A stretch of DNA of 64,000 nt from a virus (lineage: Duplodnaviria; Caudoviricetes): IMG/VR virus record IMGVR_UViG_3300035180_001680. The stretch is one strand, 5' to 3'. Positions 28,226 through 59,028 of this stretch are shown here, piece by piece (position 1 is the stretch's first letter; each line of letters begins with the position of its first letter). Position numbers and translations under genes: made by a program. The notes beneath the pieces were generated by a model. It was not told the DNA's origin. It ran no database searches and was given only the letters and a program-made list of their open reading frames with translations.

Positions 28226-28768
28226 TCATTTCGAAAGTCCTTTAATAAATTCGTTGTATGGTTTAGCCCGTTCTGTATCTTTTGCAATAGCAGGTTCTGC
28301 TTCAGGCCATCTTCCCTTGATGATATAACGAGCATACCAATAAGCCCACCGTGGATCTTTTGTAATAACATGTTCTGCTTTAGGAAATCTTCCTTTGATG
28401 ACATCACGAGCATACCAATAAGCCCAACGTGGATCTTTTGCAATAGCAGGTTCTCCTTCAGGCCATCTTCCTTCAATGACATCACGAGCATACAAAAAAG
28501 CCCATTCTGGATCTTTTGCAATAGCAGGTTCTCCTTCAGGCCACTTTCCCTTGATGACATCACGATCATAACTATAAGCCCACTGTGGATCTGTTGCAAC
28601 AACAGATTCTGCTTCTTTTTTCTGTTGTGCGTTTAATTTTCCACTTTTTAGTGCCTCATATGCCATCTGTGGAGTAGCCATGTGCTTTTTATCAAACCCA
28701 TGCAATTTTTCTGGGTTTGAATGATATTTGTATAAATCCATTGCTTCAAACAAGTCGCGTAATTTCAT
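28226..28768 (-). CDS. Array unit 27 (180 aa, 4 repeats, last)
   Basis: Head, repeats and cap. Confidence 0.9.
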   Translation of the reverse strand: MKLRDLFEAMDLYKYHSNPEKLHGFDKKHMATPQMAYEALKSGKLNAQQKKEAESVVATDPQWAYSYDRDVIKGKWPEGEPAIAKDPEWAFLYARDVIEGRWPEGEPAIAKDPRWAYWYARDVIKGRFPKAEHVITKDPRWAYWYARYIIKGRWPEAEPAIAKDTERAKPYNEFIKGLSK

Positions 28769-29385
28769 TTCGAAAGTCCTTTGATGAATTCGTTGTAATT
28801 TTTAGCCCACTTTGGATCTTTTGCAATAGCAGGTTCTCCTTCAGGCCATCTTTCTTTGATGACATCACGAGCATACCCATAAGCCCACTTTGGATCTTTT
28901 GCAATGACAGATTCTGCTTCAGGCCATCTTCCTTTGATGACATCACGAGCATACCCATAAGCCAACTCTGGATCTTTTGCAATAGCAGGTTCTCCTTTAG
29001 GAAACCTTCCTTTGATGACCTCACGAGCATACCAATAAGCCAAACGTGGATCTTTTGCAACAGTAGGTTCTGCTTCAGGAAATCTTTCCTTGATGACATC
29101 ACGAGCATAAATATAAGCCAAACGTGGATCTTTTGCAATGACAGATTCTCCTTTAGGCCATCTTCCCTTGATGACATCATGAGCATACTCATAAGCCCAC
29201 TTTGTGTCTGTTGCAACAACAGATTCTGCTTCTTTCTTTTGTTGTGCATTCAGTTTTCCACTCTCCAGTGCCTCATATGCCATCTCAGGCGTAGCCATGT
29301 GCTTTTTATCAAACCCATGCAATTTTTCTGGGTTTGAATGATATTTGTATAAATCCATTGCTTCGAGTAAGTCACGTAGTTTCAT
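28765..29385 (-). CDS. Array unit 26 (206 aa, 5 repeats)
   Basis: Leader MKLRDLLEA. Confidence 0.9.
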   Translation of the reverse strand: MKLRDLLEAMDLYKYHSNPEKLHGFDKKHMATPEMAYEALESGKLNAQQKKEAESVVATDTKWAYEYAHDVIKGRWPKGESVIAKDPRLAYIYARDVIKERFPEAEPTVAKDPRLAYWYAREVIKGRFPKGEPAIAKDPELAYGYARDVIKGRWPEAESVIAKDPKWAYGYARDVIKERWPEGEPAIAKDPKWAKNYNEFIKGLSK

Positions 29386-30080
29386 TTCGAAAGTCCTTTG
29401 ATGTCTTGTTTATACCGTTTAGCATATGTTGGATCTTTTGCAATAGCAGGTTCTTATTCAGGCCATCTTCCTTTGATGACAGAACGAGCATAATTATAAG
29501 TCCAACGTGGGTCTTTTGCAATAGCAGGTTCTGCTTCAGGCCATCTTCCTTTGACGGCATCACGAGCATACAAAAAAGCCCATTCTGGATCTTTTGCAAT
29601 AGCAGGTTCTCCTTTAGGAAATCTTTCTTTGATAACATTACTAGCATACCAATAAGCCCACCGTGGATCTTTTGCAATAGCAGGTTCTCCTTCAAACCAT
29701 CTTCCTTTGATGACATCACGAGCATACAAAAAAGCCCATTCTGGGTCTTTTGCAATAGCAGGTTCTGCTTCAGACCATCTTCCTTTGATGACATCACGAG
29801 CATACAAAAAAGCCCATTCTGGGTCTTTTGCAATAGCAGGTTCTGCTTCAGACCATCTTCCTTTGATGACATTACGAGCATAACTATAAGCCCACTGTGG
29901 ATCTGTTGCAACAACAGACTCTGCTTCTTTTTTCTGTTGTGTGTTTAATTTTCCACCTTTTAATGCAAAAAAAGCCATCTCAGGAGTAGCCATGTGTTTT
30001 TTATCAAACCCATGCAATTTTTCTGGATTCGAGTGATATTTGTATAAATCCATTGCTTCAAACAAGTCGCGTAATTTCAT
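29382..30080 (-). pseudogene. Array unit 25, premature stop (208 of 232 aa, C-cap lost)
   Basis: In-frame TAA at 29454-29456 (GAA TAA GAA where siblings have GAA GCA/GGA GAA). The cap downstream is intact and in frame. Confidence 0.8.
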
Positions 30081-30775
30081 TTCGAAAGTCCTTTGATGTC
30101 TTGTTTATACCGTTTAGCATATGTCGGATCTTTTGCAATAACAGGTTCTGCTTCAGGAAATCTTCCTTTGATGACATTACGAGCATAATACGAAGCCCAC
30201 TGTGGATCTTTTGCAATAACAGATTCTGCTTCAGGAAATCTTCCTTTGATGACATTACGAGCATACCAATAAGCATACTGTGGATCTTTTGCAATAGCAG
30301 GTTCTCCTTCAGGCCATCTTCCTTTGATGGCACCACGAGCATACTCATAAGCCCATTCTGGATGTTTTGCAATAGCAGGTTCTCCTTCAGGCCATCTTCC
30401 TTTAATGACATCATGAGTATACCAATAAGCATACTCTGGATGTTTTGCAATAGCAGGTTCTCCTTCAGGCCATCTTCCTTTAGTGACATCATGAGTATAC
30501 CAATAAGCATACTTTGGATCTTTTGCAATAGCAGGTTCTCCTTCAGGCCATCTTCCTTTGATGGCATCACGAGCGTACTCATAAGCCCACCGTGGATCTG
30601 TTGCAACAACAGACTCTGCTTCTTTTTTCTGTTGTGCGTTTAATTTTCCACCTTTTAATGATTCAAAAGCCATCTCAGGCGTAGCCATGTGCTTTTTATC
30701 ATATCCATGCAATTTCTCTGGATTTGAGTGGTATTTGTATAAGTCCATTGCTTCGAATAAGTCACGTAATTTCAT
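30077..30775 (-). CDS. Array unit 24 (232 aa, 6 repeats)
   Basis: Cap allele DPTYAKRYKQDIKGLSK. Confidence 0.9.
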   Translation of the reverse strand: MKLRDLFEAMDLYKYHSNPEKLHGYDKKHMATPEMAFESLKGGKLNAQQKKEAESVVATDPRWAYEYARDAIKGRWPEGEPAIAKDPKYAYWYTHDVTKGRWPEGEPAIAKHPEYAYWYTHDVIKGRWPEGEPAIAKHPEWAYEYARGAIKGRWPEGEPAIAKDPQYAYWYARNVIKGRFPEAESVIAKDPQWASYYARNVIKGRFPEAEPVIAKDPTYAKRYKQDIKGLSK

Positions 30776-31314
30776 TTTGAAAGTCCTTTAATAAATTCGT
30801 TGTATGGTTTAGCCCACTCTGGATGTTTTGCAATAACAGGTTCTGCTTCAGGAAATCTTTCTTTGATGACATCACGAGCATACCCATAAGCCCACTCTGG
30901 ATCTTTTGCAATAACAGATTCTGCTTCAGGAAATCTTCCTTTGATGACATTACGAGCATACTCATAAGCCCAATCTGCTTTTTTTGCAATAGCAGGTTCT
31001 CCTTCAGGCCATCTTCCTTTGATGACATAACGAGCATACAAACAAGCCCAACGTGTATCTTTTGCAATGACAGATTCTCCTTTAGGAAATCTTTCTTTGA
31101 TGACATTACGAGCATACAAACAAGCCCATCTTGGATCTGTTGCAACAACAGACTCTGCTTCTTTTTTCTGTTGTGCGTTTAATTTTTCACCTTTTAATGC
31201 TTCAAAAGCCATCTCAGGCGTAGCCATGTGCTTTTTATCATATCCATGTAACTTCTCTGGATTTGAATGATATTTATATAAATCCATTGCTTCGAACAGA
31301 TCACGTAATTTCAT
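30772..31314 (-). CDS. Array unit 23 (180 aa, 4 repeats)
   Basis: Head, repeats and cap. Confidence 0.9.
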   Translation of the reverse strand: MKLRDLFEAMDLYKYHSNPEKLHGYDKKHMATPEMAFEALKGEKLNAQQKKEAESVVATDPRWACLYARNVIKERFPKGESVIAKDTRWACLYARYVIKGRWPEGEPAIAKKADWAYEYARNVIKGRFPEAESVIAKDPEWAYGYARDVIKERFPEAEPVIAKHPEWAKPYNEFIKGLSK

Positions 31315-31931
31315 TTCGAAAGTCCTTTAACAAATTCTTTGTATTTTTTAGCCCATTCTGGATCTTTTGCAATAACAGGTTCTGCTTCAGGAAATCTTCT
31401 TTTAATGACATCACGAGCATACCCATAAGCCCACTGTGGATCTTTTGCAATAGCAGGTTCTCCTTTAGGAAATCTTCTTTCGATGACTTGTTGAGCATAC
31501 ACATAAGCCCAATCTGCTTTTTTTGCAATAGCAGGTTCTCCTTTAGGAAATCTTTCCTTGATGACATTACGAGCATACAAACAAGCCCACTTTGGATCTT
31601 TTGCAATAGCAGGTTCTCCTTCAGGCCATCTTCCTTTAGTGACATCATGAGTATACCAATAAGCATACTCTGGATCTTTTGCAATAGCAGGTTCTGCTTC
31701 AGGAAATCTTCCTTTGATGATATCATCAGCATAATTATAAGCCCAACGTGGATCTTTTGCAATAACAGACTCTGCTTCTTTTTTCTGTTGTGCGTTTAAT
31801 TTTCCACTCTTTAGTGCTTCAAAAGCCATCTCAGGAGTAGCCATGTGTTTTTTATCATATCCATGTAACTTCTCTGGATTTGAGTGGTATTTGTATAAAT
31901 CCATTGCTTCGAATAAGTCACGTAATTTCAT
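31311..31931 (-). CDS. Array unit 22 (206 aa, 5 repeats)
   Basis: Head, repeats and cap. Confidence 0.9.
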   Translation of the reverse strand: MKLRDLFEAMDLYKYHSNPEKLHGYDKKHMATPEMAFEALKSGKLNAQQKKEAESVIAKDPRWAYNYADDIIKGRFPEAEPAIAKDPEYAYWYTHDVTKGRWPEGEPAIAKDPKWACLYARNVIKERFPKGEPAIAKKADWAYVYAQQVIERRFPKGEPAIAKDPQWAYGYARDVIKRRFPEAEPVIAKDPEWAKKYKEFVKGLSK

Positions 31932-32548
31932 TTTGAAAGTCCTTTGATGAATTCGTTGTATGGCTTAGCCCATTCTGGAACTTTTGCAATAACAGGTTCT
32001 GCTTCAGGAAATCTTCCTTTGATGACAGAACGAGCATAATATGAAGCCCACTGTGGATCTCTTGCAATAGCAGGTTCTCCTTCAGTCCATCTTCCTTTGA
32101 TGACATCACTAGCATACCAATAAGCCCAACGTGGATCTTTTGCAATAACAGATTCTGCTTCAGGAAATCTTCCTTTGATGACATCACGAGCATAATATGA
32201 AGCCCACTCTGGATGTTTTGCAATAACAGATTCTGCTTCAGGAAATCTTCCTTTGATGACTTGTTGAGCATACACATAAGCCCAATCTGCTTTTTTTGCA
32301 ATAACAGGTTCTGCTTCAGTAAATCTTCTTTCGATGACTTGTTGAGCATACCTATAAGCCCACCGTGGATCTTTTGCAACAACAGACTCTGCTTCTTTTT
32401 TCTGTTGTGCATTTAATTTTCCACTCTTTAATGCTTCAAAAGCCATCTCAGGCGTGGCCATGTGTTTTTTATCATATCCATGCAATTTTTCTGGGTTTGA
32501 ATGATATTTGTATAAATCCATTGCTTCGAATAGATCACGCAATTTCAT
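31928..32548 (-). CDS. Array unit 21 (206 aa, 5 repeats)
   Basis: Head, repeats and cap. Confidence 0.9.
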   Translation of the reverse strand: MKLRDLFEAMDLYKYHSNPEKLHGYDKKHMATPEMAFEALKSGKLNAQQKKEAESVVAKDPRWAYRYAQQVIERRFTEAEPVIAKKADWAYVYAQQVIKGRFPEAESVIAKHPEWASYYARDVIKGRFPEAESVIAKDPRWAYWYASDVIKGRWTEGEPAIARDPQWASYYARSVIKGRFPEAEPVIAKVPEWAKPYNEFIKGLSK

Positions 32549-33165
32549 TTCGAAAGTCCTTTAATAAATTCGTTGTATTTTTTAGCCCACTCTGGATTTT
32601 TTGCAATAGCAGGTTCTGCTTCAGGCCATCTTCCTTTGATGACATCACGAGCATACCAATAAGCATACTGTGGATCTTTTGCAATAGCAGGTTCTCCTTC
32701 AGGCCATCTTCCTTTGATGCTATCATCAGCATACTCATAAGCCCATTCTGGATCTTTTGCAATAGCAGGTTCTGCTTCAGGCCATCTTCCTTTGATGACA
32801 TTATGAGCATAATATGTGGCCCACTCTGGATGTTTTGCAATAACAGGTTCTGCTTTAGGCCATCTTCCTTCAATGATATCATCAGCATACCAATAAGCCC
32901 ACTGTGGGTTTTTTGCAATAACAGGTTCTGCCTCAGGCCATCTTCCTTGGATGATAGAACGAGCATACCAACAAGCAAACTTTGGATCTGTTGCAACAAC
33001 AGACTCTGCTTCTTTTTTCTGTTGCGCATTCAGTTTTCCACTCTCTAGTGCCTGATATGCCATCTCAGGCGTAGCCATGTGCTTTTTATCATATCCATGT
33101 AACTTCTCTGGATTTGAGTGGTATTTGTATAAATCCATCGCTTCGAATAAGTCACGTAGTTTCAT
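32545..33165 (-). CDS. Array unit 20 (206 aa, 5 repeats)
   Basis: Head, repeats and cap. Confidence 0.9.
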   Translation of the reverse strand: MKLRDLFEAMDLYKYHSNPEKLHGYDKKHMATPEMAYQALESGKLNAQQKKEAESVVATDPKFACWYARSIIQGRWPEAEPVIAKNPQWAYWYADDIIEGRWPKAEPVIAKHPEWATYYAHNVIKGRWPEAEPAIAKDPEWAYEYADDSIKGRWPEGEPAIAKDPQYAYWYARDVIKGRWPEAEPAIAKNPEWAKKYNEFIKGLSK

Positions 33166-33782
33166 TTTGAAAGTCCTTTGATGAATTCGTTGTATTTTTT
33201 AGCCCACTTTGGATCTTTTGCAATAACAGGTTCTCCTTCAGGCCATCTTCCTTTGATGACATAACGAGCATACTCATAAGCCCAACCTGGATCTTTTGCA
33301 ATAACAGGTTCTGCTTCAGTCCATCTTCCTTTGATGACATAACGAGCATACCAATAAGCCCACCTTGGGTCTTTTACAATAGCAGGTTCTGCCTTAGGCC
33401 ATCTTCCTTGGATGATAGAGCGAGCATATTCATAAGCCCAATCTGCTTTTTTTGCAATAACAGGTTCTGCTTCAGGCCATCTTCCTTTGATGACTTGTTG
33501 AGCATACACACAAGCCCAATCTGCTTTTTTTGCAATAACAGGTTCTGCTTCAGGAAATCTTCTTTCGATGACTTGTTGGGCGTACTCATAAGCCCACCGT
33601 GGATCTGTTGCAACAACAGATTCTGCTTCTTTCTTTTGTTGTGCATTTAATTTTCCACTCTTTAGTGCCTCATAAGCCATCTCAGGAGTAGCCATGTGTT
33701 TTTTATCATATCCATGTAACTTCTCTGGATTTGAATGATATTTGTATAAATCCATTGCTTCGAATAGATCACGTAATTTCAT
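33162..33782 (-). CDS. Array unit 19 (206 aa, 5 repeats)
   Basis: Head, repeats and cap. Confidence 0.9.
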   Translation of the reverse strand: MKLRDLFEAMDLYKYHSNPEKLHGYDKKHMATPEMAYEALKSGKLNAQQKKEAESVVATDPRWAYEYAQQVIERRFPEAEPVIAKKADWACVYAQQVIKGRWPEAEPVIAKKADWAYEYARSIIQGRWPKAEPAIVKDPRWAYWYARYVIKGRWTEAEPVIAKDPGWAYEYARYVIKGRWPEGEPVIAKDPKWAKKYNEFIKGLSK

Positions 33783-34399
33783 TTTGAAAGTCCTTTGATG
33801 TCTTGTTTATACCGTTTAGCATATGTTGGGTCTTTTGCAATAGCAGGTTCTCCTTCAATCCATCTTCCTTTGATGACATCACTAGCATACCAATAAGCCC
33901 AACGTGGATCTTTTGCAATAACAGATTCTGCTTCAGGAAATCTTCCTTTGATGACATCGCGAGCATACAACCAAGCCCATTCTGGATCTTTTACAATAAC
34001 AGATTCTGCTTCAGGAAATCTTCCTTTAATGACATCATGAGCGTACATATAAGCCGTCCGTGGATTTTTTGCAATAACAGATTCTGCTTCAGGAAATCTT
34101 CCTTTGATGAAATCACGAGCATACAAAAAAGCCCATTCTGGATCTTTTGCAATAACAGATTCTGCTTCAGGCCATCTTCCTTTGATGATATCATCAACAT
34201 ACCTATAAGCCCAACGTGGATCTTTTGCGATAACAGACTCTGCTTCTTTTTTCTGTTGTGCATTTAATTTTCCACCTTTTAATGCTCCAAAAGCCATCTC
34301 AGGCGTAGCCATGTGTTTTTTATCAAACCCATGCAATTTTTCTGGGTTTGAATGATATTTGTATAAATTCATCGCTTCGAATAAGTCGCGTAGTTTCAT
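33779..34399 (-). CDS. Array unit 18 (206 aa, 5 repeats)
   Basis: Cap allele DPTYAKRYKQDIKGLSK. Confidence 0.9.
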   Translation of the reverse strand: MKLRDLFEAMNLYKYHSNPEKLHGFDKKHMATPEMAFGALKGGKLNAQQKKEAESVIAKDPRWAYRYVDDIIKGRWPEAESVIAKDPEWAFLYARDFIKGRFPEAESVIAKNPRTAYMYAHDVIKGRFPEAESVIVKDPEWAWLYARDVIKGRFPEAESVIAKDPRWAYWYASDVIKGRWIEGEPAIAKDPTYAKRYKQDIKGLSK

Positions 34400-35094
34400 T
34401 TCGAAAGTCCTTTGATGAATTCGTTGTATTTTTTAGCCCACCTTGGATCTTTTACAATAGCAGGTTCTCCTTTAGGAAATCTTCCGTTGATGACATCATG
34501 AGCATACCAATAAGCCGTCCGTGGATTTTTTGCAACAGCAGGTTCTCCCTTAGGAAATCTTTCCTCGATGACATCACGAGCATACCAATAAGCATACTCT
34601 GGATCTTTTGCAATAACAGGTTCTGCTTCAGGCCATCTTCCTTTGATGACATTACGAACATACTCATAAGCCCATTCTGGATCTTTTGCAATAACAGGTT
34701 CCGCTTTAGGCCACCTTCCCTTAATGACATCATGAGCATACCAATAAGCATACTCTGGATCTTTTGCAATAACAGGTTCCGCTTTAGGCCACCTTCCCTT
34801 AATGACATCATGAGCATACCAATAAGCATACTCTGGATCTTTTGTAATAACAGGTTCCGCTTTAGGAAATCTTCCTTCAATGACATCACGAGCATACCAA
34901 TAAGCCCACTTTATATCTGTTGCAACAACAGATTCTGCTTCTTTTTTCTGTGGTGTATTTAATTTTCCACTCTTTAGTGCCTCATATGCCATCTGTGGAG
35001 TAGCCATGTGCTTTTTATCATATCCATGCAATTTCTCTGGATTCGAGTGATATTTGTATAAATCCATCGCTTCGAATAGATCACGTAGTTTCAT
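34396..35094 (-). CDS. Array unit 17 (232 aa, 6 repeats)
   Basis: Contains an exact 78-bp tandem duplication at 34676-34844. Confidence 0.9.
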   Translation of the reverse strand: MKLRDLFEAMDLYKYHSNPEKLHGYDKKHMATPQMAYEALKSGKLNTPQKKEAESVVATDIKWAYWYARDVIEGRFPKAEPVITKDPEYAYWYAHDVIKGRWPKAEPVIAKDPEYAYWYAHDVIKGRWPKAEPVIAKDPEWAYEYVRNVIKGRWPEAEPVIAKDPEYAYWYARDVIEERFPKGEPAVAKNPRTAYWYAHDVINGRFPKGEPAIVKDPRWAKKYNEFIKGLSK

Positions 35095-38952: not shown

Positions 38953-39645
38953 TTTGAAAGTCCTTTGATGAATTCGTTGTATTTTTTAGCCCATCTTAGA
39001 TCTTTTACAATAGCAGGTTCTCCTTCAGGCCATCTTCCTTCGATGAAATCACGAGCATACCAATAAGCATACTGTGGGTTTTTTGCAATAGCCGGTTCTC
39101 CTTCAGGCCATTTTCCTTTGATGATATCATCAACATATATAAGCCCAATTTGCTTTTTTTGCAATAACAGATTCTGCTTCAGGAAATCTTCCTTTGATGA
39201 CATTATAAGCATACTCATAAGCCCACCGTGGATCTTTTGCAATAGCAGGTTCTCCTTCAGGCCATCTTCCTTTAATGAAATCGCGAGCATAATTATAAGC
39301 CCAATGTGGATCTTTTGCAATAACAGGTTCTACTTCAGGCCATCTTCCTTTGATGACATAACGAGCATACCAATAAGCCCATTCTGGATCTTTTGCAATA
39401 ACAGATTCTGCTTTAGGCCATCTTCCTTTAATGACATAATGAGCATACTCATAAGCCCATTCTGGATCTTTTGCAACAACAGATTCTGCTTCTTTTTTCT
39501 GTTGTGCATTCAGTTTTCCACTCTTTAGTGCCTCATATGCCATCTGTGGAGTAGCCATGTGTTTTTTATCATATCCATGTAACTTCTCTGGATTCGAGTG
39601 GTATTTGTATAAATCCATTGCTTCGAATAGATCACGTAGTTTCAT
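38949..39645 (-). pseudogene. Array unit 10, frameshifted (would be 232 aa, 6 repeats)
   Basis: 697 nt instead of 699. A 2-nt loss in a TATATAT run at about 39135-39141 gives ...WAYIC*, and the rest continues in another frame. Confidence 0.8.
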
Positions 39646-40262
39646 TTCGAAAGTCCTTTGATGTCTTGTTTATACCGTTTAGCATATGTTGGATCTTTTG
39701 CAATAACAGGTTCTGCTTCAGGAAATCTTCCTTTGATGACATCACGAGCATACCCATAAGCAAACTCTGGATCTTTTGCAATAACAGGTTCTGCTTTAGG
39801 CCATCTTCCTTTGATGACATCATGAGTATACCAATAAGCCGACTTTGGATATTTTGCAATAACAGATTCTGCTTCAGAAAATCTTCCTTTGATGACATCA
39901 CGAGCATAATATGAAGCCCAACCTGGATCTTTTGCAATAACAGGTTCTGCTTCAGGCCATCTTCCTTTGATGACATCACGAGCATACAAACAAGCCCACT
40001 GTGGATTTTTTGCAATAGCAGGTTCTCCTTTAGGAAATCTTCTTTCGGTGACATCACGAGCATAATAATGAGCCAACTCTGGAACTTTTGCAATAACAGA
40101 CTCTGCTTCTTTTTTCTGTTGTGCGTTTAATTTTCCACTCTTTAGTGCCTCATAGGCCATCTCAGGAGAAACCATGTGCCTTTTATCATATCCATGTAAC
40201 TTCTCTGGATTTGAGTGGTATTTGTATAAATTCATTGCTTCGAATAAGTCACGTAGTTTCAT
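39642..40262 (-). CDS. Array unit 9 (206 aa, 5 repeats)
   Basis: Cap allele DPTYAKRYKQDIKGLSK. Confidence 0.9.
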   Translation of the reverse strand: MKLRDLFEAMNLYKYHSNPEKLHGYDKRHMVSPEMAYEALKSGKLNAQQKKEAESVIAKVPELAHYYARDVTERRFPKGEPAIAKNPQWACLYARDVIKGRWPEAEPVIAKDPGWASYYARDVIKGRFSEAESVIAKYPKSAYWYTHDVIKGRWPKAEPVIAKDPEFAYGYARDVIKGRFPEAEPVIAKDPTYAKRYKQDIKGLSK

Positions 40263-40879
40263 TTCGAAAGTCCTTTAATAAATTCGTTGTAATTTTTAGT
40301 CGACTGTAGGTTTTTTGCAATAGCAGGTTCTCCTTCAGGCCATCTTCCTTTGATGACATGACGAGCATAATATGAAGCCCACCGTGGAGCTTTTGCAATA
40401 GCAGGTTCTCCTTCAGGCCATCTTCCTTTGATGACATCACGAGCATACCCATAAGCATACTCTGGGTGTTTTGCAATGACAGATTCTCCTTTAGGAAATC
40501 TTTCTTCGATGACATAACGAGCATAATATGAAGCCCATTGTGGATCTTTTGCAATAGCAGGTTCTCCTTCAGGCCATCTTCCTTTAATGACACCATGAGC
40601 ATACCAATAAGCATACTCTGGGTGTTTTGCAATGATAGATTCTCCTTTAGGAAATCTTTCTTTGATGACTCGTTGAGCATACTCATAAGCCCACTGTGGA
40701 TCTGTTGCAACAACAGACTCTGCTTCTTTTTTCTGTTGTGCATTCAGTTTTCCACTCTCTAGTGCCTCATAAGCCATCTCAGGAGTAGCCATGTGCTTTT
40801 TATCAAACCCATGCAATTTTTCTGGGTTTGAATGATATTTGTATAAATCCATTGCTTCGAATAAGTCACGTAATTTCAT
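40259..40879 (-). CDS. Array unit 8 (206 aa, 5 repeats)
   Basis: Head, repeats and cap. Confidence 0.9.
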   Translation of the reverse strand: MKLRDLFEAMDLYKYHSNPEKLHGFDKKHMATPEMAYEALESGKLNAQQKKEAESVVATDPQWAYEYAQRVIKERFPKGESIIAKHPEYAYWYAHGVIKGRWPEGEPAIAKDPQWASYYARYVIEERFPKGESVIAKHPEYAYGYARDVIKGRWPEGEPAIAKAPRWASYYARHVIKGRWPEGEPAIAKNLQSTKNYNEFIKGLSK

Positions 40880-41730
40880 TTTGAAATTCCTTTAATAAAT
40901 TCGTTGTATTTTTTAGCCCACTTTGGATGTTTTGCAATAACAGATTCTGCTTCAGGAAATCTTCCCCTGATGACATTATGAGCATACCAATAAGCCCAAC
41001 GTGGATCTTTTGCAATAACAGGTTCTGCTTCAGGCCATCTTCCTTTAATGAAATCACGAGCATACGTATAAGCCCAATCTGCTTTTTTTGCAATAGCAGG
41101 TTCTGCTTCAGGCCATCTTCCTTTGATGACATCACGAGCATACAAAAAAGCCCGTTCTGGATCTTTTGCAATAGCAGGTTCTCCTTTAGGAAATCTTTCT
41201 TTGATGACAAAATGAGCGTAATATGAAGCCCACTGTGGATCTGTTGCAATAGCAGGTTCTCCTTTAGGCCATCTTCCTTTAATGACATCACGAGCATAAC
41301 TATAAGCATACCCTGGAACTTTTGCAATAGCAGGTTCTGCTTCAGGCCATCTTTCTTTGATGACATCACGAGCGTACCAATAAGCCGACTCTGGAACTTT
41401 TGCAAAGACAGATTCTCCTTCAGGCCATCTTCCTTTGATGACATCACGAGCATACCAATAAGCCAACTCTAGATCTTTTGCAATAACAGGTTCTCCTTTA
41501 GGAAACCTTCCTTTGATGAAATCACGAGCGTACTCATAAGCCCATCTTGGATCTTTTGCAACAACAGATTCTGCTTCTTTTTTCTGTTGTGCATTTAATT
41601 TTCCACCTTTTAATGCTTCAAAAGCCATCTCAGGAGTAGCCATGTGTTTTTTATCAAACCCATGCAATTTCTCTGGATTCGAGTGATATTTGTATAAATC
41701 CATTGCTTCGAATAAGTCACGTAGTTTCAT
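40876..41730 (-). CDS. Array unit 7 (284 aa, 8 repeats)
   Basis: Head, repeats and cap. Confidence 0.9.
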   Translation of the reverse strand: MKLRDLFEAMDLYKYHSNPEKLHGFDKKHMATPEMAFEALKGGKLNAQQKKEAESVVAKDPRWAYEYARDFIKGRFPKGEPVIAKDLELAYWYARDVIKGRWPEGESVFAKVPESAYWYARDVIKERWPEAEPAIAKVPGYAYSYARDVIKGRWPKGEPAIATDPQWASYYAHFVIKERFPKGEPAIAKDPERAFLYARDVIKGRWPEAEPAIAKKADWAYTYARDFIKGRWPEAEPVIAKDPRWAYWYAHNVIRGRFPEAESVIAKHPKWAKKYNEFIKGISK

Positions 41731-42815
41731 TTCGAAAGTCCTTTGATGAATTCGTTGTATTTTTTAGTCCATCTTGGATCTTTTGCAATAACAGATTCTG
41801 CTTCAGGCCATCTTCCTTTAATGACATGACGAGCATACCAATAAGCATACTCTGGATGTTTTACAATAGCAGGTTCTCCTTCAGACCATCTTCCTTTGAT
41901 GACATAACGAGCATACTCATAAGCCCACCGTGGGTTTTTTGCAATAACAGGTTCTCCTTCAGGCCATCTTCCTTTGATGACATAATGAGCATACACACAA
42001 GCCCACTGTGGATCTTTTGCAATAACAGGTTCTCCTTTAGGAAACCTTCCTTTGATGACATTGAGAGCATACTCATAAGCCAACTCTGGATCTTTTGCAA
42101 TAACAGGTTCTCCTTTAGGAAACCTTCCTTTGATGACATTGAGAGCATACGCATAAGCCCAATATGCTTTTTTTGCAATAGCAGGTTCTCCTTCAGGCCA
42201 TCTTCCTTTAATGAAATCACGAGCATACATATAAGCCCAACCTGGATCTTTTGCAATAACATGTTCTACTTCAGGCCATCTTCCTTTGATGACATAACGA
42301 GCATACTCACAAGCCCAATGTGGATCTTTTGCAATAGCAGGTTCTCCTTTAGGAAACCTTCCTTTAATGAAATCATGAGCATACGTATAAGCCCAATCTG
42401 CTTTTTTTGCAATAGCGGGTTCTCCTTCAGGCCATCTTCCTTTGATGAAATTACGAGCATACGCATAAGCCCACTTTGGATCTTTTGCAATAACAGGTTC
42501 TCCTTTAGTAAACCTTCCTTTGATGACATCTGTAGCATACTCATAAGCCAACTCTGGAACTTTTGCAATGACAGATTCTGCTTTAGGCCATCTTCCTTTG
42601 ATGACATTACGAGCATACCTATAAGCCCACGTTGTATCTGTTGCAACAACAGATTCTGCTTCTTTCTTTTGTTGTGCATTTAATTTTCCACTCTTTAGTG
42701 CCTCATAGGCCATCTCAGGAGTAGCCATGTGTTTTTTATCAAACCCATGCAATTTTTCTGGATTCGAGTGGTATTTGTATAAATCCATTGCTTCGAATAA
42801 GTCACGTAGTTTCAT
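41727..42815 (-). CDS. Array unit 6 (362 aa, 11 repeats, longest)
   Basis: Head, 11 repeats and cap. Confidence 0.9.
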   Translation of the reverse strand: MKLRDLFEAMDLYKYHSNPEKLHGFDKKHMATPEMAYEALKSGKLNAQQKKEAESVVATDTTWAYRYARNVIKGRWPKAESVIAKVPELAYEYATDVIKGRFTKGEPVIAKDPKWAYAYARNFIKGRWPEGEPAIAKKADWAYTYAHDFIKGRFPKGEPAIAKDPHWACEYARYVIKGRWPEVEHVIAKDPGWAYMYARDFIKGRWPEGEPAIAKKAYWAYAYALNVIKGRFPKGEPVIAKDPELAYEYALNVIKGRFPKGEPVIAKDPQWACVYAHYVIKGRWPEGEPVIAKNPRWAYEYARYVIKGRWSEGEPAIVKHPEYAYWYARHVIKGRWPEAESVIAKDPRWTKKYNEFIKGLSK

Positions 42816-43585
42816 TTCGAAAGTCCTTTGATGAATTCGTTGTATTTTTTAGCCCACTGTGGATCTTTTGCAATAGCAGGTTCTCCTTCAGGCCATCTTC
42901 CTTTGATGACATCACGAACATACAAAAAAGCCAACTCTGGATTTTTTGCAATAACAGGTTCTGCTTCATGCCATCTTCCTTTGATGACATAACGAGCATA
43001 CGCATAAGCATACTCTGGAACTTTTGCAATAGCAGGTTCTCCTTTAGGAAACCTTCCTTTGATAACATTATGAGCATACAAATAAGCCAACTCTGGATCT
43101 TTTGCAAAGACATATTCTCCTTTAGGAAATCTTTCTTTAATGACATCTTCAGCATACTCATAAGCCCACTGTGGATTTTTTGCAATAGCAGGTTCTCCTT
43201 CAGGCCATCTTCCTTTGATGACACCACGAGCATACCAATAAGCATACTTTGGATCTTTTGCAATAGCAGGTTCTCCTTCAGGCCATCTTCCTTTGATGAC
43301 ATAATGATACTCATAAGCCCACTTTGGATCTTTTGCAATAACAGGTTCTGCTTCAGGCCATCTTCCTTTGATGACATTACAAGCATACTCATAAGCCCAC
43401 CGTGGATCTGTTGCAACAACAGATTCTGCTTCTTTCTTTTGTTGTGCATTCAGTTTTCCACTCTCTAGTGCCCCATAGGCCATCTCAGGCGTAGCCATGT
43501 GTTTTTTATCATATCCATGCAATTTTTCTGGATTTGAGTGGTATTTGTATAAATCCATTGCTTCAAATAAGTCACGTAATTTCAT
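42812..43585 (-). CDS. Array unit 5 (257 aa, 7 repeats, one codon deleted)
   Basis: Repeat 2 reads AYEYHYVIK, lacking the conserved Ala9. Confidence 0.9.
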   Translation of the reverse strand: MKLRDLFEAMDLYKYHSNPEKLHGYDKKHMATPEMAYGALESGKLNAQQKKEAESVVATDPRWAYEYACNVIKGRWPEAEPVIAKDPKWAYEYHYVIKGRWPEGEPAIAKDPKYAYWYARGVIKGRWPEGEPAIAKNPQWAYEYAEDVIKERFPKGEYVFAKDPELAYLYAHNVIKGRFPKGEPAIAKVPEYAYAYARYVIKGRWHEAEPVIAKNPELAFLYVRDVIKGRWPEGEPAIAKDPQWAKKYNEFIKGLSK

Positions 43586-44358
43586 TTTGAAATTCCTTTG
43601 ATGAATTGGTTATACTGTTTAGCATATGTTGGGTCTTTTGCAATAACAGGTTCTGCTTCAGGAAATCTTCCTTTGATGACATCACGAGCATACTCATAAG
43701 CCCACCGTGGATCTTTTGCAATAGCAGGTTCTCCTTCAGGCCATCTTCCTTTAATGACAGAACGAGCATAGTATAAAGCCCAATCTGCTTTTTTTGCAAT
43801 AACAGGTTCTCCTTCAGACCATCTTCCTTTGATGACATCACGAGCATAACCATAAGCCCAATCTGGATCTTTTGCAATAGCAGGTTCTCCTTTAGGCCAT
43901 CTTCCTTTGATGATATTACGAGCATACTCATAAGCCCACTGTGGACCTGTTGCAATAGCAGGTTCTCCTTTAGGCCATCTTCCTTTGATGACATCACGAG
44001 CATACCAATAAGCCAACCGTGGATCTTTTGCAATAACAGGTTCTGCTTCAGGCCATCTTCCTTTGATGGCATCGCGAGCATACCAATAAGCCAACTCTGG
44101 ATCTTTTGCAATAACAGGTTCTGCTTCAGGCCATCTTCTTTTGATGACAGAACGAGCATACCAATGAGCATACTCTGGATCTGTTACAATAACAGATTCT
44201 GCTTCTTTCTTTTGTTGTGCGTTTAATTTTCTACTCTTTAGTGCTTTAAAAGCCATCTCAGGCGTAGCCATGTGCTTTTTATCAAACCCATGCAATTTTT
44301 CTGGGTTTGAATGATATTTGTATAAATCCATCGCTTCGAATAAGTCACGTAGTTTCAT
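43582..44358 (-). CDS. Array unit 4 (258 aa, 7 repeats)
   Basis: Head, repeats and cap. ATGA overlap. Confidence 0.9.
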   Translation of the reverse strand: MKLRDLFEAMDLYKYHSNPEKLHGFDKKHMATPEMAFKALKSRKLNAQQKKEAESVIVTDPEYAHWYARSVIKRRWPEAEPVIAKDPELAYWYARDAIKGRWPEAEPVIAKDPRLAYWYARDVIKGRWPKGEPAIATGPQWAYEYARNIIKGRWPKGEPAIAKDPDWAYGYARDVIKGRWSEGEPVIAKKADWALYYARSVIKGRWPEGEPAIAKDPRWAYEYARDVIKGRFPEAEPVIAKDPTYAKQYNQFIKGISK

Positions 44359-45209
44359 TTTGAAATTCCTTTGATGTATTGTTTATAATATTTAGCATAC
44401 TCTGGATGTTTTGCAATAACAGGTTCTCCTTCAGGAAATCTTCCTTTGATGACATCACGAGCATACCAATAAGCATACTCTGGATGTTTTGCAATAACAG
44501 GTTCTCCTTCAGGAAATCTTCCTTTGATGACATCACGAGCATACCAATATGCTGACCCTGACTCTTTTGCAATAGCAGGTTCTCCTTCAGTCCATCTTCC
44601 TTTAATTACAGAACGAGCATAATGTAAAGCCCACCGTGGATCTTTTGCAATAGCAGGTTCTGCTCCAGGCCATCTTCCTTTGATGACATAACAAGCATAC
44701 TCATAAGCCCACTCTAGATCTTTTACAATAGCAGGTTCTCCTTCAGGCCATCTTCCTTCGACGACATCGTGAGCGTACATATAAGCCATCCGTGGATCTT
44801 TTGCAATAACAGGTTCTGCTTTAGGCCATCTTCCCTTGATGACATCACGAGCATAAATATAAGCCCACTTTGGATCTTTTGCAATAACAGGTTCTGTTTT
44901 AGGCCATCTTCCTTTGATGACATAACGAGCATACCTATAAGCCCACTCTGGAACTTTTGCAAAGACAGATTCTCCTTCAGGCCATCTTCCTTTGATGACA
45001 TCACGAGCATAAATGTAAACCAACTCTGGATCTGTTGCAACAACAGATTCTGCTTCTTTTCTCTGTTGTGCGTTTAATTTTCCACCTTTTAATGCTTCAA
45101 AAGCCATCTCAGGAGTAGCCATGTGTTTTTTATCAAACCCATGCAATTTTTTTGGATTCGAGTGATATTTGTATAAATCCATTGCTTCGAATAAGTCGCG
45201 TAGTTTCAT
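44355..45209 (-). CDS. Array unit 3 (284 aa, 8 repeats)
   Basis: Contains an exact 78-bp tandem duplication near its 3' end. Confidence 0.9.
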   Translation of the reverse strand: MKLRDLFEAMDLYKYHSNPKKLHGFDKKHMATPEMAFEALKGGKLNAQQRKEAESVVATDPELVYIYARDVIKGRWPEGESVFAKVPEWAYRYARYVIKGRWPKTEPVIAKDPKWAYIYARDVIKGRWPKAEPVIAKDPRMAYMYAHDVVEGRWPEGEPAIVKDLEWAYEYACYVIKGRWPGAEPAIAKDPRWALHYARSVIKGRWTEGEPAIAKESGSAYWYARDVIKGRFPEGEPVIAKHPEYAYWYARDVIKGRFPEGEPVIAKHPEYAKYYKQYIKGISK

Positions 45210-45904
45210 TTCGAAAGTCCTTTGATGAATTCGTTGTATTTGTTAGCCCATTCTGGATCTTTTGCAATAGCAGGTTCTCCTTCAGGCCATCTTCCTTTAA
45301 TGACATGACGAGCATACACATAAGCCCACTTTGGATCTTTTGCAATAGCAGGTTCTGCTTCAGGAAATCTTTCTTTAATGACATAATAAGCATAATATGA
45401 AGCCGACTGTAGATCTTTTACAATAGCAGGTTCTCCTTCAGGCCATCTTCCTTTAATGACATGACGAGCATACAACCAAGCCCATTCTGGATCTTTTGCA
45501 ATAACAGGTTCTGCTTTAGTCCATCTTCCTTTAATGACATGATGAGCATACCAACAAGCCCACTCTGGATCTTTTGCAATAACAGGTTCTGCTTTAGGCC
45601 ATCTTCCTTTGATGACATAACGAGCATAACTATAAGCCCACTCTGAATCTTCTGCAATAACAGGTTCTACTTTAGGCCATCTTCCTTTGATGACATAACG
45701 AGCATACCTATAAGCCCATCGTGGATCTGTTGCAATAACAGACTCCGCTTCTTTTTTCTGTTGTGCGTTTAGTTTTCCACTCTTTAGTGCCTCATAGGCC
45801 ATCTCAAGAGTAATTATGTGCTTTTTATCATATCCAGGTAACGTCTCTGGATTCGAGTGATATTTGTATAAGTCCATTGCTTCAAATAAGTCACGTAATT
45901 TCAT
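45206..45904 (-). CDS. Array unit 2 (232 aa, 6 repeats)
   Basis: Head variant ETLPGYDKKHI, shared with unit 11. Confidence 0.9.
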   Translation of the reverse strand: MKLRDLFEAMDLYKYHSNPETLPGYDKKHIITLEMAYEALKSGKLNAQQKKEAESVIATDPRWAYRYARYVIKGRWPKVEPVIAEDSEWAYSYARYVIKGRWPKAEPVIAKDPEWACWYAHHVIKGRWTKAEPVIAKDPEWAWLYARHVIKGRWPEGEPAIVKDLQSASYYAYYVIKERFPEAEPAIAKDPKWAYVYARHVIKGRWPEGEPAIAKDPEWANKYNEFIKGLSK

Positions 45905-46521
45905 TTTGAAAGTCCTTTAATAAATTCGTTGTATTTGTTAGCCCACTGTGGATCTTTTGCAATAGCAGGTTCTCCTTTAGGAAACCTTCCTTTGATGACA
46001 TGACGAGCATACGCATAAGCCCAATATGCTTTTTTTGCAATAGCAGGTTCTGCTTCAGGCCATCTTCCTTTAATGACATAACGAGCATACCCACAAGCAT
46101 ACTCTGGATCTTTTGCAATAGCAGGTTCTCCTTTAGGAAACCTTCCTTTGATGACATTGAGAGCATACGCATAAGCCCAATATGCTTTTTTTGCAATAGC
46201 AGGTTCTGCTTCAGGCCATCTTCCTTTGATGACATCACGAGCATACGCATGAACCCACAGTAGATCTTTTGCAATAACAGGTTCCGCTTTAGGCCATCTT
46301 CCCTTAATGACATAATGAGCATACCAATAAGCCCACTGTGGATCTGTTGCAACAACAGACTCTGCTTCTTTTTTCTGTTGTGCGTTTAATTTTCCACCTT
46401 TTAATGCTCTAAAAGCCATCTCAGGCGTAGCTATGTGTTTTTTATCATATCCATGTAACTTCTCTGGGTTTGAATGATATTTGTATAAATCCATTGCTTC
46501 GAATAAGTCGCGCAATTTCAT
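45901..46521 (-). CDS. Array unit 1 (206 aa, 5 repeats)
   Basis: Head, repeats and cap. Starts 6 nt after the 526-aa ORF. Confidence 0.9.
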   Translation of the reverse strand: MKLRDLFEAMDLYKYHSNPEKLHGYDKKHIATPEMAFRALKGGKLNAQQKKEAESVVATDPQWAYWYAHYVIKGRWPKAEPVIAKDLLWVHAYARDVIKGRWPEAEPAIAKKAYWAYAYALNVIKGRFPKGEPAIAKDPEYACGYARYVIKGRWPEAEPAIAKKAYWAYAYARHVIKGRFPKGEPAIAKDPQWANKYNEFIKGLSK

Positions 46522-48132: not shown

Positions 48133-48140
48133 TATTTATA
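48133..48140 (-). promoter_or_regulatory. T4-type late promoter TATAAATA for the 526-aa gene and array operon
   Basis: Exact consensus on the minus strand, 25 nt upstream of the ATG at 48108. Confidence 0.75.
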
Positions 48141-59026: not shown

Positions 59027-59028
59027 AA

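Follow-up and report, generated by a model that had tools for sequence, protein, structure and literature searches.

A tandem array of 27 phage paralogues built from 26-residue repeats that vary on one predicted helix face

What are 27 adjacent paralogous phage genes for, when they are built from one 26-residue unit and almost every copy of that unit is distinct? The question is raised by a gene array in a 64-kb window, i.e., the whole stretch of DNA analysed here (64,000 nucleotides). The array comes from an uncultured giant phage, the habitats being sediment and microbial mats. An earlier note on this DNA had proposed that the variation of the units falls on one helix face and forms a binding surface on a fixed scaffold. 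Here, we report that replacement change on this variable face outpaces silent change, whether units are compared within the array or with those of a related contig.

Organization of the array and variability of its unit

All 27 genes on the minus strand of 28226-46521 open with MKLRDL, and their products follow one plan, i.e., a 58-aa front, 4 to 11 units of 26 aa and a 17-aa end cap. The proteins are basic, with a pI of 8.7-9.6 in 26 of the 27. The frame is intact and the exact 26-aa register is kept in 25 genes (Table 1); two are broken, as is expected under birth-and-death turnover. In the paralogue with the in-frame stop, the remainder of the unit and the cap stay in frame past the stop until the next gene; in the one with the frameshift, two additional units and the cap follow in a different frame. 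We extracted 153 intact units, one of them a 25-aa variant, and 151 are distinct; three further units from the broken genes bring the total to the 156 repeats counted earlier. Please note that the array DNA is about 85% identical across 18 kb, so the gene order, given as assembled, is uncertain; public short-read contigs fragment there into pieces of 100-170 bp.

Table 1. Coordinates of the array, its parts and its upstream neighbor (positions in the window)
Feature	Position	Strand	Remark
Tandem paralogue array	28226..46521	-	27 genes, 180-362 aa; adjoining genes overlap by 4 nt (ATGA)
First array gene, 206 aa (the modelled one)	45901..46521	-	AlphaFold2 model m362a8744474a
Front of first array gene, residues 1-58	46348-46521	-	First 30 residues of low confidence
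Five units of first array gene, residues 59-188	45958-46347	-	AlphaFold2 model
Cap helix of first array gene, residues 189-206			AlphaFold2 model
Broken paralogue	29386..30080	-	In-frame stop at unit position 20, sixth unit (ORF 29454-30080)
Broken paralogue	38953..39645	-	Frameshift within a unit; reading ends ...NWAYIC (ORF 39130-39645)
Upstream gene, 526 aa	46528..48108	-	Ends 6 nt before the array
TATAAATA, T4-type late-promoter consensus (consensus match only)	48133..48140	-	25 nt upstream of the ATG at 48108

The per-position entropy that the earlier note had proposed was computed over the 153 intact units, and it is highest at positions 7 (3.25 bits, 16 residue types), 3 (2.59 bits), 11 (2.23 bits, 10 types), 10 (1.82 bits, 11 types), 4 (1.72 bits) and 6 (1.51 bits), in this order. 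The residues listed before for positions 7, 10 and 11 match the extracted units exactly. Wide variation had been claimed for positions 3, 4 and 6 as well; it holds for position 3, but positions 4 (W in 66%) and 6 (Y in 72%) are moderately variable and chiefly aromatic. Position 1 has the same entropy as position 6 (1.51 bits). Nearly invariant are positions 5, 8, 9, 13, 16, 21 and 24-26, and each residue previously described as fixed is found in 130-153 of the 153 units (A5 151, Y8 153, A9 143, V12 130, I13 147, R16 151, P18 138, E21 153, I24 146, K26 146). Five further positions, absent from the earlier note, take two states at about 1 bit each: 17 (W/F), 19 (E/K), 20 (G/A), 22 (P/S) and 23 (V/A).

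The variable face of helix A

The first array protein was modelled with AlphaFold2 (pLDDT 88.8 overall, 94-98 in the repeats). The predicted fold is all-helical, two antiparallel helices per unit being stacked as a solenoid with no strands. According to DSSP, helix A spans positions 3-14 and helix B positions 19-25 in all five units, and positions 15-18 form the turn between them. Over the 12 positions of helix A, the entropy moment reaches its maximum of 0.52 at 100 degrees per residue (permutation p=0.005), i.e., at alpha-helical periodicity, and the six variable positions (3, 4, 6, 7, 10 and 11) each lie within 87 degrees of the center of variability. Positions 5, 8, 9, 12 and 13 are at least 107 degrees away from this center, and the hydrophobic moment of the helix points 175 degrees from it. 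The earlier assignment of the variable residues to one face and of the conserved small and hydrophobic residues to the other is borne out by this geometry, and so is the aromatic-rich character of the face (Y 19%, W 16%), to which R (15.5%) and D (10.5%) are to be added. The charge of the face is about neutral (-0.12 per unit), the positive charge of the proteins being located in the caps. Helix geometry and amphipathicity predict that the variable face is exposed and contiguous from unit to unit, opposite the stacking side. Positions 4 and 6, aromatic in most units, lie at the edge of the face (+73 and -87 degrees from its center) and may therefore serve as ridges for packing between units rather than as free contacts.

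The scaffold carrying this face had been called fixed, and it is fixed even silently: among codons for the majority amino acid, diversity is 0.08 in the scaffold vs 0.24 in the front of the same genes, and pS is 0.097 and 0.41, respectively. Dominant codons are, for example, GCT at A5 (149 of 151), CCA at P2 (126 of 128) and GCA at A25 (145 of 145), i.e., codon choice differs position by position, which indicates identity by descent and not codon bias. The front itself (first 58 residues) is under strong purifying selection (pN/pS 0.10).

Across 76 independent nearest unit pairs, the replacement rate at the six face positions exceeds the pooled silent rate by a factor of 2.58 (binomial p=7e-14), while the remaining 20 codons give a ratio of 1.03. 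Against the units of a related contig (L001), replacement/silent is 2.12 at the face positions and 0.98 elsewhere. The ratios by position are 3.4 (position 3), 1.4 (4), 3.8 (7), 2.4 (10) and 2.9 (11) within the array, and 3.4, 1.4, 2.9, 1.8 and 2.1 against the related contig. The earlier note had named a ratio of at most 1 at these five positions as speaking against the proposed binding surface; all values lie between 1.4 and 3.8, as obtained by a counting method on short, recombining units and not by recombination-aware FEL/MEME.

Could the face simply drift? Any repeat protein varies on its exposed helix faces, and the array could be a by-product of slippage and unequal crossing-over, with the exposed side of a structural or filler solenoid under relaxed constraint and no repertoire at all. 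Two array genes out of 27 are no longer intact, and the face positions, compared pairwise, differ by replacement (pN 0.385) about as much as the front does at silent sites (0.41); with this silent divergence as the neutral yardstick, the face would look merely unconstrained. We disfavor this yardstick, since a conversion tract has no way of leaving out individual codons; this is an argument and not a test. Drift can bring the ratio to 1 at most, whereas replacement at the face runs at 2.1-2.6 times the silent change in the same units. The composition of the face, with its excess of Tyr, Trp and Arg, is also non-random; frames and the exact register are preserved in 25 genes, and thousands of relatives vary at the same face with their frames intact. 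We therefore regard relaxed constraint as improbable.

The repeat family and the neighboring module gene

A phmmer search (E<=0.001) placed relatives of the 26-aa repeat in 5,194 protein clusters (50% identity), mostly viral, with members of up to 2,253 aa. The same unit positions are variable in 203 units of 110 distant relatives. Neither Pfam, NCBIfam, PHROGs nor PADLOC has a model for the repeat, and no member of the repeat family was found among 50,697 phage records. A very large phage protein family of more than 5,000 clusters is thus without a model, and pipelines misname it as a winged-helix DNA binder. The array at 28226-46521, with 27 genes and 156 units, is the most extreme form of this family found here.

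The pipeline label of the relatives, the winged helix-turn-helix HTH_35 (PF13693), does not fit an all-helical solenoid that is predicted to have no strands: its score reaches 22.5 and 37.9 bits when summed over the repeats, no single stretch passes, and the matches touch profile positions 26-54 only. As for HEAT repeats, the HEAT-type trait of two antiparallel helices per unit in a solenoid is present in the model, but the 206-aa and 362-aa paralogues have no Pfam match to HEAT, HEAT_2 or HEAT_PBS at E<=1, and the best structure matches, the HEAT domain of symplekin (Z 6.9, rmsd 4.7, 175 aligned) and YibA (1oyz, Z 5.2), are at chance level, i.e., below the score that is meaningful for helical repeats. 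Foldseek with the array model returned nothing at E<=0.001. No Pfam match to DUF4116 (PF13475) or LRV (PF01816) was found in the array proteins; matches in the AlphaFold DB include a DUF4116-named entry (TM 0.62, E 0.038) and LRV-named entries (TM about 0.3).

The gene directly upstream of the array carries in its C-terminal half (residues ~270-526) a helical part and an alpha/beta part in which the TKWCT motif is invariant. This half is the same module that precedes the repeats in fused relatives, in which the array's repeat domain has its homologue in the C-terminal half (phmmer E to 1e-100 and below). The GTKWCT motif occurs in 61 of 252 repeat relatives and is N-terminal to the repeats in 60 of these 61, and one AlphaFold DB entry (A0A5C7J2L6) matches both models, that of the repeat and that of the module. 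Here the two are separate: the module ends at 46528, and each of the 27 genes has a start and a front of its own. Structure comparison with the module brought up phage proteins that are fusions with WG_beta_rep, DUF4116, LRV, LRR or Ank repeats.

Several features suggest a link between this neighborhood and the virion. The word TATAAATA, which precedes the upstream gene, recurs ~30 nt upstream of two ORFs, those that start at 10761 and 18492. The gene of the fused relative P0117 is flanked by those of a prohead protease (Peptidase_S77) and of a Gp23 capsid protein. The short array front is conserved and basic and carries an L-x-E leader; the leaders read MKLRDLFE-AM in the array and MKLHE-M or MKLSE-M in relatives, and are followed by a cap motif that forms the true N-terminus in other phages. 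The N-terminal 230 residues of EST35_0205 of Pseudomonas phage PA5oct (QCG76086.1), with a GTRWCT motif, are homologous to the C-terminal half of the 46528-48108 gene (34-35% identity, E 3e-25 to 7e-35), whereas its own C-terminal half does not consist of 26-aa repeats. EST35_0205 is annotated as a structural protein and was detected by ESI-MS/MS (PMC7318152). The array proteins are possibly virion-borne as well, a link that runs through a 34%-identical homologue of the neighboring gene and not through the array proteins themselves.

Possible roles of the face and turnover of the units

We consider it probable that the array as a whole is a diversified repertoire of binders acting through the face of helix A, partnered with the module and perhaps delivered by the virion. 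Its products would be small alpha-solenoids; in each unit, a GRWP-type turn would join helix A (12 residues) to helix B (7 residues), and the units would stack through the fixed A5, Y8, A9, V12, I13, W/F17, P18 and I24. Positions 7, 3, 11 and 10 make up the core of the face, with 4 and 6 at its edges. Most likely, the variable face is a target-recognition surface and the array a set of about 25 different binders. The repeat domain would ordinarily be the C-terminal, variable half of phage proteins and the conserved GTKWCT module their N-terminal half; in other phages the module bears LRR, ankyrin, LRV, DUF4116 or WG-beta repeats instead. In the present phage, the module gene is separate and heads the same operon, and the binders would act with it or in its pathway. 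They may be made late, carried in the virion and act after injection on variable molecules of the host or of competitors.

A more specific version of this reading is put forward tentatively, and we think it rather unlikely. An ancestral module-repeat fusion would have split into one constant module and about 25 interchangeable recognition subunits, i.e., a germline binder library that is packed and injected. The subunits would dock via their conserved, poorly ordered N-terminal 30 residues, and the capsid-packed set could neutralize or retarget many host defence or competitor proteins simultaneously. If so, the 26-aa unit would be a natural, evolvable, phage-specific scaffold comparable to ankyrin or LRR repeats.

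The repertoire reading has counterparts among known systems. Repeat binders of viruses and hosts include the poxvirus ankyrin/PRANC host-range genes, DARPins and lamprey VLRs. Ankyrin/LRR families resemble the array in combining a constant module with a variable repeat domain, in their multigene arrays with duplication-loss turnover and in a hypervariable surface on a fixed scaffold, and the fusion of the GTKWCT module to Ank/LRR in other phages links the two; they differ in fold and repeat, and in the array phage the module is encoded apart from the repeats. No link of the phage array to a ubiquitin ligase or a known pathway was found. Urvoas and co-workers reportedly derived the alphaRep library from PBS-lyase HEAT-like repeats in 2010. 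There, too, short two-helix units stack as an alpha-solenoid, with variable positions of the i, i+1, i+4, i+5, i+8 type on one helix face and a fixed hydrophobic scaffold; the array unit has 26 aa instead of about 31, and the phage library is a natural one of 27 genes in one operon. If the face does bind targets, phages would possess a scaffold that fills for them the place of ankyrin and LRR repeats in other systems, the arrays would be the record of a so-far unexamined arms race with hosts, and the unit would offer binder engineering a short natural scaffold on which the permitted variable positions are already mapped.

Could the array be a set of sequence-specific DNA or RNA binders instead, with one base per unit read through positions 7, 10 and 11 as in TALE, PUF or PPR proteins? 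Such proteins share with the array helical repeats, units near-identical in DNA with few hypervariable codons (this recalls TAL effectors in particular) and paralogues that differ in unit number. The array proteins are basic (pI ~9), R/H/Q at position 10 and D/N/Y/S/H at position 11 are typical base-contact residues, and PUF and PPR structures are among the weak matches (Z 4.7-5.6), although at chance level for helical repeats. However, there is no small residue code: 152 units show 76 combinations at positions 7, 10 and 11 and 130 different strings at the six variable positions, where TAL effectors, PUF and PPR proteins vary at two or three. The face is near-neutral, with the positive charge in the caps, and LRR and ankyrin repeats, to which the module is fused in relatives, are protein binders. 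We consider this role very unlikely.

Bulk proteins of the head, i.e., internal, scaffold or DNA-packing proteins in which mass, charge and length (a spacer of 4-11 units) matter and the face may have any sequence, have a similarly slim chance of being the answer. The late-promoter-like word before the operon, the basic front with its leader, the virion protein of PA5oct and the fused relative within a head gene module are all in their favor. The T4 internal proteins IPI-III, which are small, basic and variable, begin with a short MK...(L/I)-x-E leader; made late and packaged into the head, they are injected to counteract host defence. The putative (L/I)-x-E leader of the array proteins and their relatives and the candidate late-promoter word TATAAATA are reminiscent of these, but the array proteins have no sequence or fold relation to IPI-III. 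A head protein of this kind leaves the position-specific excess of replacement unexplained, and likewise the 151 distinct units out of 153 on a homogenised scaffold; delivery in the virion is compatible with these data, a sequence-indifferent function is not.

On the repertoire reading, unit diversity would have three sources: duplication and loss of units, very fine-grained recombination among about 150 near-identical units, and point changes retained at face positions through diversifying selection, while the scaffold would be homogenised, silent sites included. A diversity-generating retroelement or a similar mutator aimed at the face codons is hardly credible, even though the variation is limited to few codons amid near-identical DNA: no reverse transcriptase domain (Pfam, ~30 ORFs) and no non-coding template copy of the unit were found in the 64-kb window, the variable columns show no adenine specificity (G, C, T and A all occur as consensus bases), 153 target units across 27 genes are unlike any such element, and silent variants within face codons (position 3: GAG/GAA, CGG/CGT) point to old alleles. 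At position 17, the codon is either TGG or TTT, intermediates being absent, and it is nearly unlinked to codon 19, six bases off, which indicates shuffling of old variants. Adjacent unit pairs differ by 3 nt or fewer in 3 of 124 cases, vs 0.16% among all pairs. In the related contig, the same upstream gene is followed by 12 genes, and only one of the 54 units of that contig recurs in the array.

Architecture of the tandem array

Each array protein begins with a 58-aa front, in which the leader MKLRDLFEA is followed by the motif MDLYKYHSNPEKLHG and, at the end, by a degenerate unit; it continues with 4, 5, 6, 7, 8 or 11 exact 26-aa units of consensus DPEWAYWYARDVIKGRWPEAEPVIAK and closes with a 17-aa end cap, DPxWAKKYNEFIKGLSK. 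The intact units number 153 (one of them without one residue), 151 of which are distinct; with three more in the two broken genes they make up the 156 repeats counted in the earlier note. Open reading frames of 150-326 aa on the plus strand or in other frames also span the array; these are taken as by-products of stop-free repetitive DNA, because homologues, ATGA coupling and the selection pattern described below occur only in the minus-strand MKLRDL frame.

At gene junctions throughout the array (e.g., 28765-28782), the closing codons (KGLSK, AAAGGATTATCGAAATGA) hold a Shine-Dalgarno-like AAGGA word about 10 nt ahead of the next ATG, which itself overlaps the stop (ATGA), so that the conserved end cap doubles as a translation-coupling signal. 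In at least 12 array genes, within 28587-45050 (e.g., 28587-28609, 33601-33623 and 36303-36325), a 10-bp-stem palindrome, GAATCTGTTGTTGCAACAGATCC (coding strand; encoding ESVVATDP), lies where the front meets the first unit; it was detected on the antisense strand by the terminator scan and may form an mRNA hairpin or serve in recombination.

Coordinates of the array, its broken members and other genes of the window
Feature	Position (nt)	Strand
Open-ended ORF at window start, >2,779 aa	2-8341	plus
~500-aa gene with DUF7487	19201-20721	plus
~500-aa gene with DUF7487	22396-23898	minus
Clamp-like gene	27071-27823	
Array of 27 genes, all with MKLRDL start, adjacent genes overlapping by ATGA	28226-46521	minus
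Broken array gene, in-frame stop within the sixth unit	29454-30080	
Broken array gene, frameshift, then two units and cap in another frame	39130-39645	
526-aa gene, ending 6 nt before the array	46528-48108	minus
Family-B DNA polymerase carrying a LAGLIDADG-domain intein	49066-52860	minus
SbcCD-like genes	57974-60807	

The variable face and selection among units

A per-position tally of the units reproduced exactly the residue lists of the earlier note. Across the 153 units, entropy is 3.25 bits at position 7 (16 residue types), 2.59 at position 3, 2.23 at position 11 (10 types), 1.82 at position 10 (11 types), 1.72 at position 4 and 1.51 at each of positions 6 and 1. Positions 5, 8, 9, 13, 16, 21, 24, 25 and 26 are near-invariant, and five others have two states: 17 (W/F), 19 (E/K), 20 (G/A), 22 (P/S) and 23 (V/A). 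Briefly, the first array gene (206 aa) was modeled with AlphaFold2 from an alignment of 11 paralogues and one relative, giving a mean pLDDT of 88.8, with 94-98 in the repeats and about 50 in the first 30 residues. In each modeled unit, positions 3-14 form a 12-residue helix (helix A) and positions 19-25 a helix of 7 residues, with a turn of four residues (15-18) between them. The entropy-weighted moment over the 12 positions of helix A peaks at 0.52 at 100 degrees per residue, is 0.09-0.15 at 60 and 130-180 degrees, and is exceeded in just 0.5% of permutations. Positions 3, 4, 6, 7, 10 and 11 (the face) lie at most 87 degrees from the center of variability and positions 5, 8, 9, 12 and 13 at least 107 degrees from it, with the hydrophobic moment 175 degrees away. 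With this alpha-helical periodicity and the opposite hydrophobic moment, the model places the variation on one helix face, as had been proposed from the sequence.

Positions 4 and 6 form the edges of the face and are mostly W and Y, for which reason they may be packing ridges. The face as a whole is composed of Y (19%), W (16%), R (15.5%), D (10.5%) and E (9%), a composition like that of protein-binding hot spots and antibody paratopes. The array proteins as a whole are basic (pI ~9), as a TALE-, PUF- or PPR-like reader of nucleotides might be; however, the charge of the face is neutral and there is no small code, positions 7, 10 and 11 giving 76 combinations, which argues against such a reader.

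The scaffold, i.e., the other 20 codons of the unit, is nearly identical in DNA among units. This is identity by descent or homogenization, not codon bias, since the same amino acid is coded differently position by position: Ala is GCT at 5 and 9 and GCA at 25, and Pro is CCA at 2 and CCT at 18 and 22. Within the majority amino acid, the units have a codon diversity of 0.08 (0.05 when restricted to four-fold sites), whereas the front of the same genes reaches 0.24. Nei-Gojobori proportions for the three regions are pS 0.41 and pN 0.04 in the front part (58 codons), pS 0.097 and pN 0.12 in the scaffold, and pS 0.275 and pN 0.385 in the six face codons. Units were then paired greedily by smallest DNA distance, which limits saturation and non-independence and yields 76 independent pairs. 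Relative to the pooled silent rate, replacement was 2.58-fold at the face codons (binomial p=7e-14), even though pairing by overall distance is biased against detecting face differences, and 1.03-fold at the other 20 codons. Against 54 units of the related metagenome contig L001, the ratios were 2.12 at face codons and 0.98 elsewhere. At positions 3, 4, 7, 10 and 11 they were 3.4, 1.4, 3.8, 2.4 and 2.9 within the array and 3.4, 1.4, 2.9, 1.8 and 2.1 against L001; by this counting method, which is not a recombination-aware likelihood, all are at least 1.4, above the dN/dS of 1 or less that the earlier note had named as evidence against its proposal.

Since homogenization works on tracts, the excess of the face over silent sites within these units calls for either targeted mutation or selection that favors diversity. 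A retroelement is an unlikely agent of such targeting: a scan of about 30 window ORFs revealed no reverse transcriptase, the variable columns are not adenine-specific, and the position-3 alleles contain silent variants (GAG/GAA, CGG/CGT), as in old, maintained alleles. With the silent divergence of the front as the yardstick, the face would seem merely unconstrained; this yardstick is set aside on the argument that tract-wise homogenization is unable to spare single codons.

Several features bear on how the diversity arises. Position 17 is coded TGG or TTT with zero intermediates, yet positions 17 and 19 are nearly unlinked (all four combinations common; corrected mutual information 0.06 bits), so that old variants appear to be shuffled by very short exchanges. 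The 153 units carry 130 different six-residue face strings, a few of which recur (EWFLRD seven times, EYYWHD four times). Near-identical units are enriched among neighbors, 3 of 124 adjacent pairs differing by 3 nt or less versus 0.16% of all pairs. Two samples gave the same assembly of L001 (1 mismatch in 5,203 bases). It opens with the gene that also heads the array here, continues with 12 genes and a stub and then passes into unrelated genes; its first gene is nearest to the fifteenth array gene of the window (37176-37718, 91.6%). Of its 54 units, a single one has an identical counterpart in the window, and 23 of the 54 share a face string. Shuffled variants, near-identical neighbors, this turnover and the two broken genes point to birth-and-death evolution with recombination. 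After the L001 array there is a papain-like Peptidase_C1 gene (L001 7574-8353) where the window has the clamp-like gene, so the downstream border differs between relatives.

On sequence and model together, the array is most likely a diversified recognition surface on a homogenized alpha-solenoid scaffold. From the earlier proposal of a diversified, aromatic-rich binding surface on a fixed scaffold, the diversified face, its aromatic richness and the homogenized scaffold are borne out, and binding is what we infer.

Relatives of the repeat and of the upstream module

No family for the array proteins was found in Pfam, NCBIfam, PADLOC or PHROGs. HTH_35 was considered and rejected: its sub-threshold score adds up across the repeats without any one stretch passing alone, and a winged helix is absent from the model; the automatic 'winged helix-turn-helix' names of relatives are probably wrong. 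In 50,697 phage records, tblastn with an array protein as query gave no match at E<=0.01, and Foldseek gave zero PDB matches at E<=0.001 for the array model and the module model alike. VIA-align matched the array model to generic solenoids (symplekin HEAT, Phytophthora LWY effectors, PPR, PUF, designed repeat proteins, YibA) with Z of 4-7, the chance level for helical repeats. In the AlphaFold DB the matches are uncharacterized relatives and entries named DUF4116, LRV or HEAT.

Among the candidates of a word-indexed search, 1,523 proteins matched at E<=0.001, and an exhaustive search gave 5,194 cluster representatives, with lengths up to 2,253 aa and up to 16 matched stretches. Nearly all repeat relatives have viral taxonomy. 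Distant relatives (203 units from 110 proteins) vary at positions 3, 4, 7, 10 and 11 (3.1-4.0 bits) and are fixed at 5, 8, 9, 21, 24 and 26, as in the array, indicating that the variable face belongs to the family as a whole. At its N- or C-terminal side the repeat has further partners in some relatives: a PrkA kinase C-terminal domain (P0129), DUF5661 (P0085) and, in P0081, an N-terminal domain with YHGT...SLS...EYEEY motifs that may resemble those of ADP-ribosyltransferases.

In the 526-aa gene upstream of the array, residues 1-269 are rich in lysine, glutamate, serine and threonine, with no relatives detected, and residues 270-526 are the only conserved half, the GTKWCT module, which aligns with proteins sharing invariant T-K-W-C-T and Y residues. 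Its model (pLDDT 85.8) has a helical part and a small alpha/beta part. The motif occurs in 61 of 252 relatives of the array proteins, in 60 of them 70-110 residues N-terminal to the first repeat, and one AlphaFold DB entry is matched by both models in the order module, then repeats. An ESM Atlas shape search found the module in phage proteins of 390-560 aa, the other half of which consists of WG-beta, DUF4116, LRV, LRR or ankyrin repeats. The usual design thus seems to be a constant module with an exchangeable binder-type repeat domain; here the two are separate genes, and the repeat half is expanded to 27 copies. The array would then be a repertoire of about 25 binders functionally belonging with the module. 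The end of the module gene (...YPEWSKFLEKIIK) resembles the array end cap (7 of 12 residues, by eye).

For the module, VIA-align matches to GNAT-like and other alpha/beta structures are weak and partial (chance level, with Z no higher than 5.2), and AlphaFold DB entries with PcfJ-like names match it weakly (E ~0.01, TM 0.25-0.33); neither is taken as an assignment. The module profile found nothing among PDB sequences. The 526-aa gene has a TATAAATA word 25 nt ahead of its ATG, and two other window ORFs have one about 30 nt ahead of theirs; this is no more than a match to the T4-type late-promoter consensus, with 9 sites seen versus 5.8 expected.

Systems of this kind are known, both as repeat scaffolds that bear a hypervariable face and as constant modules to which variable repeats are joined. 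We found no description of the family in the literature on jumbo-phage tandem paralogues, DUF4116, PcfJ or phage hypervariable helical repeats; as far as our literature searches reach, this repeat family is undescribed, and so are its scale among phages and the arrangement seen here, split and expanded.

Possible site of action and genomic setting

Among cultured phages, the module is present in PA5oct-like Pseudomonas phages, Caulobacter CcrBL9 and Salicola SCTP-2. EST35_0205 of PA5oct (482 aa, motif GTRWCT) adjoins a terminase-like gene and carries the annotation 'structural protein, ESI-MS/MS', the method by which 93 virion-linked products were identified in the PA5oct study (PMC7318152). 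P0117, a relative in which module and repeats are fused, has its gene next to a prohead protease gene (Peptidase_S77) on one side and a Gp23 capsid gene on the other. In other phages, stand-alone relatives have M-[DN]-[LI]-Y-K-[YF]-H as their very start, and a leader is added before that start in the array lineage (MKLRDLFE-A) and in a sister group (MKLHE- or MKLSE-), all of the added leaders terminating in L-x-E. In T4, the prohead protease cleaves at this motif, and the leaders of the internal proteins have this form. The 58 front codons are under strong purifying selection (pN/pS 0.10) despite the poor order of the first 30 residues in the model. Such behavior would be expected of a peptide for targeting or docking, for which the front is a candidate. 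Considering the PA5oct virion homologue, the head-gene neighbors of P0117, the L-x-E leaders and the constrained front, it is a reasonable extension that the array proteins may be expressed late, packaged in the virion and injected.

The genome from which the window comes is that of a giant tailed phage, AT-rich (33-40% GC), whose T4-like replication genes include the polymerase, clamp-like and SbcCD-like genes of the table and an exonuclease gene. In the 50,697 phage records, the nearest polymerases (42-47% identity) are those of Xanthomonas XacN1 and Xoo-sp13, Stenotrophomonas CM1 and Ralstonia RsoM2USA. The intein with its LAGLIDADG homing-endonuclease domain occupies residues ~658-995 of the family-B polymerase, and the best phage relatives align in two pieces flanking it. 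The stretch is present in four public DNA runs from sediment and microbial-mat metagenomes, with no RNA run listed. In the assembled contigs of public runs the array appears as 100-170-bp pieces only, so that its gene order and copy number are those of the window sequence; one contig in run X4 links back across 4 kb, from 46079 to 42066. A near-identical 211-kb JGI contig carries the relatives P0003 and P0253. After the open-ended ORF at the window start come several large genes, which match head and virion proteins of PHROGs weakly. The two ~500-aa genes that have DUF7487 in common are probably homing or mobile endonuclease genes; the minus-strand one also has REase_MTES_1575- and Vsr-like endonuclease matches below Pfam cut-offs.
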